Shown here piece after piece: positions 57,004-63,444 of a stretch of DNA of 64,000 bases. The DNA is taken from NCBI RefSeq assembly GCF_054482595.1, contig NZ_CM137008.1, one strand, 5' to 3'. The position numbers were made by a program, and so were the translations under genes. The first letter of the stretch is position 1. Each line of letters starts with the position of its first letter. Below the pieces are notes generated by a model. The model did no database searches and was not told the DNA's origin. It saw only the letters and a list, made by a program, of their open reading frames with translations.

Positions 57004-57350
57004 AAATTCTCCTGTAAAACGCGGAATATACCGTACCTCTTAGCAGGGAAAAACAGAGTTATGCGGCAACGTCGAAATTAAATGTGATCTGCCGCGCCTT
57101 TTATCACAAAAGTGTCTCCGGAAGTACAATGCAAATTTGCGTGGCAAAATAAGGATAATCAACATATTACGAATCGCTGCACACCTGTGCTGATAACTAC
57201 TACGCAGAGAAACAAATGTGCAAGAGAAAGCGCTATTTCTCCCCATGCAAAGAGTGAAAAATCGCTTTGAAAGGCCATCATGATGGGGTTATATCAGATC
57301 AAGCGGTGAGAAAGCGTATTTGCACAAATGTGCAGAACCAGGAGGCGGCA

Positions 57351-58298
57351 ATGGAAAACAGTGACGATATCCGTTTGATTGTGAAGATTGCCCAACTCTA
57401 TTACGAACAGGATATGACGCAGGCGCAAATCGCGCGCGAACTGGGTATTTACCGCACCACCATCAGCCGCTTGCTTAAACGAGGCCGCGATCAGGGAATT
57501 GTCACCATCGCCATCAACTATGACTACAACGAAAATCTCTGGCTGGAGCAGCAACTGAAGCAAAAGTTTGGCCTGAAAGACGTTGTGGTGGTGTCGGGAA
57601 ATGATGAGGATGAAGAGACTCAACTGGCGATGATGGGGTTACACGGCGCGCAACTGCTGGATCGCTTGCTGGAGCCTGGCGATATTGTCGGTTTTTCCTG
57701 GGGTCGCGCGGTGAGCGCACTGGTTGAAAACTTGCCGCAGGCGGGGCAATCGCGGCAGTTAATCTGCGTACCAATTATTGGCGGACCGTCCGGTAAACTC
57801 GAAAGCCGCTATCACGTAAACACATTAACCTACAGCGCGGCAGCGAAGCTGAAAGGGGAATCGCATCTCGCGGATTTTCCGGCTCTACTGGATAACCCAT
57901 TAATTCGTAATGGGATCATGCAGTCTCAGCACTTTAAAACCATCTCTGCCTACTGGGATAATCTGGATGTCGCCCTGGTGGGAATTGGCTCACCGGCCAT
58001 TCGCGACGGCGCTAACTGGCATGCGTTTTATGGTGGTGAAGAGAGTGACGACCTGAATGCCCGCCAGGTTGCTGGCGATATTTGCTCGCGCTTTTTTGAT
58101 ATTCACGGCGCAATGGTTGAAACGAATATGAGCGAAAAAACACTCTCTATCGAAATGAATAAATTAAAGCAGGCGCGGTATTCCATTGGCATTGCCATGA
58201 GTGCAGAAAAATACAGCGGAATTGTTGGTGCACTGCGTGGAAAATATATTAATTGTCTGGTAACGAATAGCAGCACAGCTGAACTATTACTGAAATAA
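57351..58298 (+). CDS. sorC: SorC/DeoR-family transcriptional regulator of the sorbose operon
   Basis: ATG at 57351 with AGGAGG RBS; N-terminal HTH (…MTQAQIARELGIYRTTISRLLKRGRDQGIVTI…) plus sugar-phosphate-binding domain. Confidence 0.85.
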   Translation: MENSDDIRLIVKIAQLYYEQDMTQAQIARELGIYRTTISRLLKRGRDQGIVTIAINYDYNENLWLEQQLKQKFGLKDVVVVSGNDEDEETQLAMMGLHGAQLLDRLLEPGDIVGFSWGRAVSALVENLPQAGQSRQLICVPIIGGPSGKLESRYHVNTLTYSAAAKLKGESHLADFPALLDNPLIRNGIMQSQHFKTISAYWDNLDVALVGIGSPAIRDGANWHAFYGGEESDDLNARQVAGDICSRFFDIHGAMVETNMSEKTLSIEMNKLKQARYSIGIAMSAEKYSGIVGALRGKYINCLVTNSSTAELLLK

Positions 58299-58367
58299 AA
58301 ATCTTCCCGATGTTTACCGTAATAAAAATTACGGCGGGTCCCTATTATCTAAAATCAGGAGTCTGTT

Positions 58368-59174
58368 ATGCAAACGTGGTTAAATTTGCAGGATAAAATC
58401 ATTATCGTCACCGGCGGCGCATCCGGTATTGGTCTGGCGATTGTAGAGGAATTATTAGCACAAGGCGCAAACGTACAGATGGTAGATATTCACGGTGGCG
58501 ATGGTCAATATGAAGGTCATAAAGGCTATCAGTTTTGGCCGACCGATATTTCCAGCGCCAAAGAGGTAAATCATACGGTAGCGGAAATTATCCAGCGTTT
58601 TGGTCGCATCGACGGTCTGGTCAATAACGCCGGGGTCAATTTCCCGCGTCTGCTGGTCGATGAGAAAGCGCCTGCCGGGAAGTATGAACTCAACGAAGCT
58701 GCATTCGAAAAAATGGTCAATATCAACCAGAAAGGCGTTTTTCTGATGTCGCAGGCGGTGGCGCGACAGATGGTCAAACAACATGATGGCGTGATTGTGA
58801 ATGTTTCCTCAGAAAGTGGACTGGAAGGCTCAGAAGGACAAAGCTGTTACGCCGCTACCAAAGCCGCGCTCAATAGCTTCACGCGCTCCTGGTCGAAAGA
58901 GCTGGGTAAACACGGTATCCGTGTGGTCGGTATCGCGCCGGGGATTCTGGAAAAAACAGGACTGCGCACGCCGGAATATGAAGAAGCGCTGGCGTGGACG
59001 CGCAATATCACCGTCGAGCAGCTGCGTGAAGGCTATACCAAAAACGCCATTCCTATTGGGCGCGCCGGAAGATTAGCAGAAGTCGCTGATTTTGTTTGTT
59101 ATCTGCTGTCTGAACGCGCCAGCTACATCACCGGAGTAACCACTAACATTGCGGGCGGCAAAACGCGCGGATAA
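58368..59174 (+). CDS. sorD: Short-chain dehydrogenase (sorbitol-6-phosphate dehydrogenase type)
   Basis: 268-aa ORF with TGGASGIG Rossmann motif and SDR catalytic YxxxK (YAATKAAL). Confidence 0.85.
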   Translation: MQTWLNLQDKIIIVTGGASGIGLAIVEELLAQGANVQMVDIHGGDGQYEGHKGYQFWPTDISSAKEVNHTVAEIIQRFGRIDGLVNNAGVNFPRLLVDEKAPAGKYELNEAAFEKMVNINQKGVFLMSQAVARQMVKQHDGVIVNVSSESGLEGSEGQSCYAATKAALNSFTRSWSKELGKHGIRVVGIAPGILEKTGLRTPEYEEALAWTRNITVEQLREGYTKNAIPIGRAGRLAEVADFVCYLLSERASYITGVTTNIAGGKTRG

Positions 59175-59183
59175 GGAGGCTTT

Positions 59184-59591
59184 ATGGTCAACGCCATTTT
59201 TTGTGCCCACGGCAAATTAGCTTGCGCCATGCTGGAATCGGTTCAGATGGTTTACGGCAACACCAATGTTGAAGCCGTTGAATTTGTGCCCGGTGAAAAC
59301 GCCGGAGACATCGTAGCAAAGCTGAAAAAGTTAGTAAGCATTCACAATCAAGATGAGTGGCTGATTGCCGTGGATTTACAGTGCGGCAGCCCGTGGAATG
59401 CGGCAGCGATGCTTGCGATGCGCAATCCTCGTCTGCGGGTAATCAGCGGACTTTCTCTGCCGCTGGCGCTCGAACTGGTTGATAACCAGGACAGCATGAA
59501 TGTTGATGAACTGTGTGAACACCTGACGCAAATCGCAAAGCAAACCTGCGTTGTCTGGAAACAACTGGCAACGACAGAGGAGGATTTCTGA
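59184..59591 (+). CDS. sorF: PTS sorbose-specific EIIA (mannose family)
   Basis: 135-aa ORF with AAGGAGG RBS; stop overlaps sorB start. Confidence 0.85.
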   Translation: MVNAIFCAHGKLACAMLESVQMVYGNTNVEAVEFVPGENAGDIVAKLKKLVSIHNQDEWLIAVDLQCGSPWNAAAMLAMRNPRLRVISGLSLPLALELVDNQDSMNVDELCEHLTQIAKQTCVVWKQLATTEEDF

Positions 59592-61783: not shown

Positions 61784-61834
61784 TTCTTCGCCCCGGCACG
61801 ACTGCCGGGGCCATCGCTCAACATAAGGTGGTTT

Positions 61835-63064
61835 ATGAAAACAACAGCTCTGCGTCTTTATGGTAAACGTGATTTACGCCTGGAAACCTTTGATCTTCCT
61901 GAAATGCAGGAGGATGAAATCCTCGCGACGGTGGTCACTGACAGCCTGTGCCTCTCTTCCTGGAAAGAGGCCAACCTGGGTGAAAACCATAAAAAAGTAC
62001 CCGACGATGTGGCGACCAACCCAATCATCATCGGCCACGAGTTTTGCGGCGATATTCTGGCCGTGGGTAAAAAGTGGCAGCACAAATTCCAGCCGGGTCA
62101 ACGTTATGTAATACAGGCCAACCTGCAACTCCCCGACCGCCCGGACTGCCCCGGCTACTCCTTCCCGTGGGTGGGTGGTGAAGCCACACATGTGGTTATC
62201 CCAAATGAGGTTATGGAACAAGATTGCCTGCTGGCATACGAAGGCGAAACCTACTTTGAAGGCTCGCTGGTTGAACCGCTTTCCTGCGTGATTGGCGCGT
62301 TCAACGCCAACTATCATCTTCAGGAAGGTAGTTATAACCACACGATGGGGATTCGCCCGCAAGGGCGCACGCTGATCCTCGGCGGCACCGGACCAATGGG
62401 ACTGTTGGCGATTGATTATGCGCTACATGGACCCGTTAACCCGTCGCTGCTCGTCATTACCGATACCGACAACGATAAATTGAGTTATGCGCGCAAGCAC
62501 TATCCATCAGAACCGCAAACACTGATTCATTATCTCAATGCCACCGATGCAGCATTTGATACGCTAATGGCGCTGAGTGGCGGTCACGGCTTCGATGATA
62601 TTTTCGTCTTTGTGCCTAATGAAGGACTGGTGACTCTCGCCTCTTCCTTGCTGGCGACAGATGGTTGCCTGAATTTCTTCGCCAGACCGCAGGATAAACA
62701 TTTCAGCGCGCCAATTAATTTCTACGATGTGCATTATGCATTTACCCACTACGTGGGCACGTCAGGCGGCAATACCGACGACATGCGCGCAGCGGTCAAA
62801 TTGATTGAAGAGAAAAAAGTGCAGGCCGCAAAAGTGGTAACACATATTCTTGGGCTGAATGCCGCGGGCGAAACCACGCTTGAATTACCTGCCGTCGGCG
62901 GCGGCAAAAAGCTGGTGTATACCGGGAAATACCTGCCGCTGACGTCACTCACGCAGATTCAGGATCAAGCACTGGCGGCGATTCTGACGCGTCATCAGGG
63001 GATCTGGTCCGGTGAGGCGGAGCAATATCTGCTCACTCATGCAGAGGCAATTTCCCATGATTAA
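61835..63064 (+). CDS. sorE: Zinc-type dehydrogenase (MDR family), sorbose-1-phosphate reductase type
   Basis: 409-aa ORF with MDR zinc-ligand region (…CLSSWKEANLGENHKK… GHEFCGDIL) and GGTGPMG nucleotide motif. Confidence 0.8.
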   Translation: MKTTALRLYGKRDLRLETFDLPEMQEDEILATVVTDSLCLSSWKEANLGENHKKVPDDVATNPIIIGHEFCGDILAVGKKWQHKFQPGQRYVIQANLQLPDRPDCPGYSFPWVGGEATHVVIPNEVMEQDCLLAYEGETYFEGSLVEPLSCVIGAFNANYHLQEGSYNHTMGIRPQGRTLILGGTGPMGLLAIDYALHGPVNPSLLVITDTDNDKLSYARKHYPSEPQTLIHYLNATDAAFDTLMALSGGHGFDDIFVFVPNEGLVTLASSLLATDGCLNFFARPQDKHFSAPINFYDVHYAFTHYVGTSGGNTDDMRAAVKLIEEKKVQAAKVVTHILGLNAAGETTLELPAVGGGKKLVYTGKYLPLTSLTQIQDQALAAILTRHQGIWSGEAEQYLLTHAEAISHD

Positions 63065-63214
63065 TCGCGTTACTCAACTCTGCATGTCGCTGGCTGGTCG
63101 CACCAGCAACTTCGCGACCGGATGTGCTGCTGATTGCTGAAGCAGCACAATTTGCACGAGAAGCATAAAAAATATCAGCGCCTTAAGGGGCGCTCAAATT
63201 GGTGGCAAAGTGCA

Positions 63215-63330
63215 CATTGTTTATGCCGGATGCGGAATGAAGCCTTATTCGGTCTACATAATTTTGAAAATTCAATATATTGCAGTTATCTGGTAGGCCA
63301 GGTAAGCGTAGCGCATCAGGCAATGCTGTG
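63215..63330. repeat. REP-like elements between sorE and pepE
   Basis: GCCGGATGCGGAATGAAGCCTTATTCGGTCTAC ... GGTAGGCCAGGTAAGCGTAGCGCATCAGGC. Confidence 0.6.
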
Positions 63331-63444
63331 TTTGTCATCAGTCTCAGCGCCTGTGCAATACGTGACATCGTGAGCCATGTCAGTAAGTGGTTAAATTCGC
63401 AGTGGTAGCATTCCTTCCGTGATTTCTTACTAACCGGAGAAGTA

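Follow-up and report, generated by a model that had tools for sequence, protein, structure and literature searches.

The 64,000-nucleotide window analysed here, part of contig NZ_CM137008.1, carries towards its end seven intact, co-directional genes, sorC-sorD-sorF-sorB-sorA-sorM-sorE, on the plus strand at 57351-63064. They lie between rluF and pepE, and the stretch under study (57004-63444) is the exact interval from the start codon of rluF (57003) to that of pepE (63445). We interpret it as the chromosomal L-sorbose catabolic operon of sorbose-positive (sor-positive) E. coli with its seven canonical genes intact, and place the probability of this reading at about 93%. The genes were taken from a six-frame list of open reading frames (ORFs), with start codons as chosen by the Prokaryotic Genome Annotation Pipeline (PGAP) for a record that is 100% identical to the window, E. 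coli XH990. Intergenic gaps within the operon measure 9-69 nucleotides (nt), and a single TGATG holds both the stop of sorF and the start of sorB (context TTCTGATGAAC). The start of sorC is an ATG with AGGAGG at 57340-57345, while the mechanical ORF list begins earlier, at a TTG at 57267.

Most of this had been anticipated by the original prediction, made from the sequence alone. The ORF list bears out its seven co-directional, tightly spaced genes in the stated order, the TGATG overlap is present in the sequence, and NCBIfam and Pfam models recover the families that it named: a regulator, a short-chain dehydrogenase/reductase (SDR), the IIA, IIB, IIC and IID components of a mannose-family phosphotransferase system (PTS), and a zinc-type dehydrogenase. 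Repetitive extragenic palindromic (REP)-like repeats were expected on the pepE side and are found there (63293-63321, with an inverted partner at 63224-63234). No flanking mobility genes were expected; the PGAP annotation of the 100%-identical record contains no integrase or insertion sequence (IS), and a search for transfer RNA (tRNA) genes found none within 45000-64000. The word "complete" needs qualification, since it is right for the canonical seven genes and wrong for the 3' end of the cluster, which carries the remnant of a deleted further gene, sdhL. The label sorCDFBAME is safe to use when the window is annotated. Features are collected in Table 1.

Table 1. Features of the sorbose locus and its flanks (positions are those of the window)
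Feature	Position	Strand	Description and evidence
rluF	56131-57003	-	23S rRNA pseudouridine 2604 synthase; left core flank, divergent from sorC; NF007784 equivalog, 607 bits; PGAP
rluF-sorC intergenic control region	57004-57350	+	347 bp; junction mapping, local alignment, 29-sequence alignment
Candidate CRP-like site TGTGATCTGCCGCGCC	57083-57098	+	Suggested by conservation
Invariant block CACAAAAGTG	57105-57114	+	29-sequence alignment
Box O1 TGCACACCTGTGCT	57178-57191	+	TGCACA-N2-TGTGCA-type palindrome upstream of the promoter; candidate SorC half-operator
Box O2 GAAACAAATGTGCA	57209-57222	+	Candidate SorC half-operator; right half identical to O3
Candidate sor promoter	57267-57295	+	Putative -35 TTGAAA 57267-57272, 17-nt spacer, putative -10 TATATC 57290-57295
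Box O3 TGCACAAATGTGCA	57321-57334	+	Perfect palindrome between putative -10 and ribosome-binding site (RBS); candidate repressing SorC operator
sorC	57351-58298	+	First gene; SorC-family regulator, helix-turn-helix (HTH) and sugar-binding domain; PF04198, 270 bits; 2W48
sorD	58368-59174	+	SDR, predicted D-glucitol(sorbitol)-6-phosphate dehydrogenase; NF004817, 501 bits (cut-off 304)
sorF	59184-59591	+	EIIA, mannose-family sorbose PTS; TIGR00824, 148 bits (cut-off 98); PF03610 (EIIA-man)
sorB	59591-60085	+	EIIB (PTSIIB_sorb); TIGR00854, 224 bits; 1NRZ
sorA	60151-60948	+	EIIC membrane component (EII-Sor); TIGR00822, 422 bits; PF03609
sorM	60959-61783	+	EIID membrane component (EIID-AGA); TIGR00828, 472 bits; PF03613
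sorE	61835-63064	+	Predicted L-sorbose-1-phosphate reductase, divergent medium-chain zinc-type dehydrogenase; PGAP name; PF08240, 30 bits
sdhL remnant	63057-63168	+	Shikimate-5-dehydrogenase-like, HI0607 family; blastn, tblastn, alignment to intact gene
REP-bearing insert	63184-63352	.	169 bp; REP-like arms 63224-63256 and 63293-63321 in inverted orientation
pepE upstream region	63355-63444	+	Common to K-12, conserved with Salmonella too; junction mapping
pepE	63445-64000	+	Dipeptidase E; right core flank, cut by the window end; PGAP; 99.3% DNA identity to K-12

Gene products and predicted sorbose function

Since family-level hidden Markov models (HMMs) do not separate sugar specificity, we compared the products with the crystallised Sor proteins of Klebsiella. 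SorC aligns from residue 1 to 315 with residues 1-315 of Klebsiella SorC (2W48) at 86.7% identity (E=1e-182), and SorB matches Klebsiella IIB-Sor (1NRZ) at 86.3% identity (E=8e-91), against only E=1e-49 for the IIB domain of ManX. The best hits are thus the Klebsiella Sor proteins rather than ManXYZ or any other PTS family, and the proposed identity as the sorCDFBAME L-sorbose PTS operon stands. SorF, SorA and SorM were compared only with genomes of the K. oxytoca complex, at 73-96% identity. The translations carry the SDR motifs TGGASGIG and YAATK in SorD, the phospho-histidine motifs AHG and RLIHGQV in SorF and SorB, respectively, and candidate zinc ligands (C39 and H68-E69) in SorE, which passes the Pfam ADH_N model and scores just under the cut-off of PF00107 (ADH_zinc_N).

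The mechanism has been established in Klebsiella and E. coli and is restated in recent work (PMC12817954, PMC13410766); for this locus we deduce it from orthology. SorF, SorB, SorA and SorM would together import L-sorbose and phosphorylate it to L-sorbose-1-phosphate, which SorE would reduce to D-glucitol-6-phosphate; SorD would then oxidise this intermediate to fructose-6-phosphate, allowing it to enter glycolysis. SorC would act as a repressor when sorbose is absent and as an activator when it is present, probably through three conserved TGCACA-N2-TGTGCA-type boxes that lie around a weak, activator-dependent promoter.

Compared with the operon of strain CFT073, the window shows 96.6% DNA identity, and 38 of 1830 residues differ (10 of them in SorA), with no stop or frameshift. 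DH5alpha gains the ability to grow on L-sorbose when it carries the cloned CFT073 operon (c4981-c4987; PMC2831201), functional verification in CFT073 dating from 2010, and CFT073 itself grows on sorbose (PMC2831201, PMC13410766). Knock-outs of sorE and of sorAM, together with a knock-in, in strains of sequence types (STs) 131 and 10 gave phenotypes that confirm the function, and induction by sorbose was shown (PMC12817954). Sorbose function has therefore been demonstrated experimentally for alleles 96.6-98% identical to the window (PMC2831201, PMC12817954, PMC13410766). The operon is already known and well studied: during 2025-2026 it has been investigated by multi-omics and knock-outs as a marker of fitness and virulence that is overrepresented among lineages of extraintestinal pathogenic E. 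coli, and a 2026 paper links it to virulence (PMC13410766). The neighbourhood of the locus is sor-pepE-yjbB-metH in XH990 and iclR-metH-...-yjbB-pepE-sorE in CFT073. This arrangement agrees with a 1992 study (Wehmeier), in which the E. coli sor genes were reportedly cloned and mapped near metH and iclR.

Two observations count against reading the cluster as a working sorbose operon. SorE passes no NCBIfam model, its name resting on PGAP and on orthology to the SorE of CFT073 and Klebsiella, and Shigella is reported to keep sor DNA yet to be sorbose-negative (PMC2831201), so that intact ORFs are not proof of function. An improbable alternative is that, as in the report on Shigella, the operon is present but cryptic, with missense or regulatory changes silencing or impairing it. 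The 38 amino-acid differences from CFT073, including the 10 in SorA, would fit such an operon, as would a 3' end altered by the sdhL deletion and a REP insert. Against this, all seven ORFs are full length without internal stops and every conserved control block is intact; CFT073 shares the same sdhL-deleted haplotype, with a gap of 380 bp between sorE and pepE, and grows on sorbose, and ST131 is reported to lack sdhL and still to grow on sorbose (PMC12817954).

Distribution, sdhL and the polarity of the polymorphism

A megablast of positions 56900-63600 against 5426 complete E. coli genomes recovered the full sor locus in 2865, in the chromosome and at the rluF-pepE site, and only the flanks in the remainder, K-12 among them. 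As had been proposed, rluF and pepE are adjacent in K-12 and the sor genes are absent from the locus there, and the suggested alignment against the K-12 spacer now gives exact breakpoints: 57038|57039 and 63354|63355, with 6316 bp here in place of 86 bp in K-12. All 12 of the sor-negative genomes sampled have the same 471-bp span, which points to one shared sor-less deletion allele. In 2025, a survey that covered 22,267 and 44,208 genomes reported frequencies of the operon above 86% in all phylogroups apart from A (9.6%) and B1 (12.1%) (PMC12817954). A few variant loci also occur in E. coli: one with an IS1 insertion (ETEC1748), one plasmid match, and one genome with only 60-80% identity.

The sor-positive genomes fall into two haplotypes, distinguished by sdhL. 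In E. coli CUVET19-1704, an extra 270-codon gene annotated as "shikimate 5-dehydrogenase" follows sorE; its product matches the NF009202 equivalog at 464 bits (cut-off 306), and its best relative in the PDB is H. influenzae SdhL, HI0607 (1NPY, E=2.5e-111). In the window, as in CUVET19-1704, the sdhL ATG overlaps the sorE stop in ATGATTAA, and a 701-bp internal deletion, with a junction shared by an O157-like allele, has fused a 5' stub (63057-63114, codons 1 to ~19) out of frame to 63115-63168, which comprises the last 17 codons (254-270) and TAA. No full-length NF009202-type protein of ~270 residues is encoded at 63057-63168, where only terminal codons remain. Intact sdhL is present in 177 of the 5426 E. 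coli genomes, nearly all at >=99% identity and including the O7:K1 strain CE10. Haplotypes with both sor and sdhL thus make up ~3% of complete E. coli genomes, those with sor, the sdhL deletion and the REP insert (this window, CFT073 and O157-like strains) ~50%, and sor-less haplotypes ~47%.

Beyond E. coli, a one-genome-per-species scan with SorE as query returned loci with the same order and orientation, lysC/yjbD, rluF(-), sorCDFBAME(+) and pepE(+). Synteny is full in E. whittamii, Escherichia sp. MOD1, three Pseudocitrobacter, at least eight Citrobacter, five Klebsiella (oxytoca complex and indica), four Raoultella and several Enterobacter-like genomes. Cedecea conserves the rluF-sor side, with no pepE match found within the locus, and the E. 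albertii contig begins inside sorA and shows sorA-sorM-sorE-sdhL-pepE. By tblastn, intact sdhL directly follows sorE in 29 enterobacterial loci, those of E. albertii and E. whittamii included, and it is predicted to be translationally coupled to sorE. A recent study described sdhL as sorbose-induced, unique to ST648 and absent from ST131, and as an "ST-specific insertion" (PMC12817954). Its presence in these outgroups points the other way, and the comparison of loci indicates that sdhL is ancestral rather than specific to ST648.

On the simplest reading of these data, Escherichia and related genera inherited the sor operon at the rluF-pepE site from their ancestors, and its polymorphism reflects loss. 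Same-site synteny, an unremarkable G+C content (50.8% for 57039-63354, with 50.2% in the remainder of the window), a piece of sor leader in the K-12 spacer and the phylogroup distribution all argue for loss rather than insertion, and loss by deletion would also explain the lack of flanking mobility genes. In the proposed order of events, sdhL would have been lost through one 701-bp deletion and the REP insert gained in most E. coli, this strain included, and the near-whole cluster would then have disappeared on one occasion, on the branch that gave rise to the majority of A and B1 strains, leaving the 86-bp spacer. The first 67 nt of this spacer are homologous to positions 57004-57070 of the window, the homology weakening beyond the breakpoint as it extends to ~57070, and the diverged part of these 67 nt is at least as similar to Citrobacter and Klebsiella as to E. 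coli. The last ~20 nt match the pepE leader of the allele with intact sdhL.

Not everything at the site sits easily with loss. About 40 nt of the K-12 spacer (roughly TATTTGTTATTTCCATTGGCTTGAATTCGTTACCTGCTCAAATCA) have no match in seven sor-positive loci or in the Salmonella rluF-pepE interval, which argues against a clean, single-step deletion of a present-day allele; they may represent decayed sor leader or filler DNA. Moreover, a comparison of E. coli with Pseudocitrobacter over 55726-63064 gives 85-93% DNA identity for yjbD, rluF and sor (86-93% for the sor genes of Escherichia), whereas the flanking lysC and pepE reach 80-83%. This pattern hints at an old exchange of a yjbD-rluF-sor segment between genera by homologous recombination, in one direction or the other.

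The original prediction had called the operon strain-variable cargo. It is indeed variable among strains, but the gain that "cargo" implies is contradicted by synteny across genera, which indicates an ancestral operon. That the genes form a horizontally acquired islet, received by some strains between rluF and pepE, we regard as quite improbable. Such an islet would account for the absence of sor from K-12 and ~47% of complete E. coli genomes, for a Salmonella enterica locus that has a 179-residue DUF2058 gene between rluF and pepE instead of sor, and for an Escherichia sor unusually close to that of Pseudocitrobacter relative to the flanks; a 2026 paper also still treats the way in which strains "acquired" the operon as unsettled (PMC13410766). 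However, the locus is without integrase, IS or tRNA and its G+C content equals the background; the same site and orientation recur outside E. coli, in three further Escherichia species and a number of other genera; presence exceeds 86% in every phylogroup except A and B1 (PMC12817954); the K-12 spacer retains a decayed stretch of sor leader; and all the sampled sor-negative genomes share one allele. No direct repeat brackets the operon, the sole direct repeat being that around the internal 169-bp REP insert. The Salmonella interval has only its pepE-proximal ~100 bp in common with E. coli, and its DUF2058 gene suggests that the rluF-pepE site has held different content in different genera. With eight genes in the ancestral cluster and two deletions in succession since then, the comparative data indicate a polarity opposite to that in recent papers, for sor and for sdhL alike.

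The possible contribution of sdhL to sorbose metabolism deserves separate consideration. To our knowledge, the HI0607 family consists of orphan shikimate-dehydrogenase-like enzymes without a known substrate. A 5-ketofructose reductase of the shikimate-dehydrogenase family yields L-sorbose and offers a precedent for such a role, and SdhL matches an enzyme of this type in the PDB (7COK, E=2e-16). To see whether the sdhL-sor linkage extends past the Enterobacteriaceae, we looked at three contexts of SdhL homologues (65-71% identical; one Lautropia genome and two contigs), and no sor genes were found nearby; this makes a role of SdhL specific to sorbose less likely, and we rate it as unlikely. A broader version, in which sor was ancestrally an eight-gene unit with SdhL coupled to SorE in sorbose-related redox and has decayed stepwise in E. 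coli, is doubtful, and we put it forward only tentatively.

Control region and flanking repeats

We aligned the rluF-sorC spacer across 29 genomes of Escherichia, Pseudocitrobacter, Citrobacter, Klebsiella, Raoultella, Enterobacter and Cedecea, and found invariant blocks set between freely varying DNA. The first of the candidate sites is one whose left half, TGTGA(TC), is invariant, with GTGATC at 57084-57089 here, and whose right half is ACACC in other genera; we take it to resemble the CRP consensus TGTGA-N6-TCACA. Box O1 shows little or no variation in its GCACA and GTGC columns, in box O2 CAAATGTGCAA is near-invariant, and the O3 block TTTGCACAAATGTGCAGA is kept in 29 of 29 sequences save for single substitutions. 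Boxes O2 and O3 also share an exact 11-nt repeat, ACAAATGTGCA, at 57212 and 57324. The putative -10 sits inside a further invariant block, GGGTTATATCAGATC, at 57286-57300. Proteins of the SorC family have been modelled as tetramers binding half-operators (PMC11229326), and two boxes upstream of the promoter plus a palindrome between the -10 and the RBS would fit a tetrameric activator-repressor, as far as the sequence allows us to infer.

Generic scans lend these elements no weight of their own, and to that extent speak against them. The O3 palindrome is not enriched across the window (6 matches against 10 expected), so that a regulatory role for it follows only from its clustering in the 347-bp leader and from its conservation, and a generic sigma-70 and terminator scan of 56950-63500 returned background numbers (7 against 7.2 and 8 against 7.7, respectively). 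The candidate promoter is missing from the list produced by that promoter scan. The sole intergenic match in the list, 57101-57130, was dropped, as its columns are not conserved. The cross-genus footprint of the control region could nevertheless guide the mapping of SorC operators.

At the other end of the cluster, the REP-bearing insert is bracketed by a 9-bp direct repeat, TCAGCGCCT, at 63175-63183 and 63344-63352, and stands where the allele with intact sdhL has ~16 bp. The direct repeat resembles a target-site duplication. The unit at 63293-63321 differs at 2 positions from a REP consensus, and 100 shuffles gave 0 matches. The insert is single-copy per genome and occurs in 2689 genomes, approximately the sor-positive total minus the 177 with intact sdhL; it closely co-occurs with the sdhL deletion. 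A further unit of the 63293-63321 type lies at 32048-32076, likewise with 2 mismatches to the same consensus.

On the rluF side, the convergent genes yjbD and rluF are separated by a 132-bp spacer (55999-56130) with a G+C-rich hairpin, CCCTCTCCCCGAAGGGGCGAGGGG. This spacer is present here and in K-12, whereas the two genes abut in CFT073, O157-like and phylogroup-F-type strains; it is probably a small repeat-element insertion, and its pattern shows the flank to be a mosaic. An Rfam search of 52000-64000 (E<=0.1) found no match in the sor region, its sole match being the known and expected lysine riboswitch upstream of lysC (53836-54032; RF00168, 99.5 bits).

Relation to known systems

The more distant of the systems to which the locus can be compared is E. 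coli ManXYZ, which belongs to the same PTS family and uses the same four-domain IIA/IIB/IIC/IID chemistry. It is very improbable that sorbose is a wrong label here and that this mannose-family PTS serves another substrate (mannose, fructoselysine/glucoselysine or N-acetylgalactosamine). Family HMMs are blind to the sugar, SorM scores 415 bits with the subfamily model "PTS mannose transporter subunit IID", above its cut-off of 365, and SorA passes general Man/Fru/Sor IIC models. But IIA and IIB, fused in ManX, are encoded here as two polypeptides, SorB is much closer to IIB-Sor than to ManX, models of the AgaF/AgaV/AgaW/AgaE type score far under their cut-offs, the linked SorE and SorD enzymes suit a sorbose pathway, growth on L-sorbose is conferred by the nearly identical operon of CFT073 (PMC2831201), and a sorE mutant with an altered sorbose phenotype has been reported (PMC12817954). 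The man operon, moreover, is without linked SorE and SorD dehydrogenases and without a SorC regulator.

Much closer is the sorCDFBAME operon of Klebsiella pneumoniae (Sprenger, Wehmeier, Lengeler; 2W48, 1NRZ), in which all seven genes recur in identical order, and in K. oxytoca-complex genomes the operon likewise adjoins rluF, its proteins being 76-96% identical to those here. The sor DNA of Klebsiella and CFT073 is ~78% identical (PMC2831201), and the Klebsiella-group loci differ in keeping an intact sdhL after sorE, plus further genes before pepE. Closest of all are the sor operons of CFT073, ST131, ST648 and O157:H7-type E. coli strains, which occupy the same locus with the same gene set. 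With CFT073 and O157-like strains the window shares the haplotype combining the sdhL deletion and the REP insert, at 96.6-98.4% DNA identity, and from their sor operons it shows allelic differences only.

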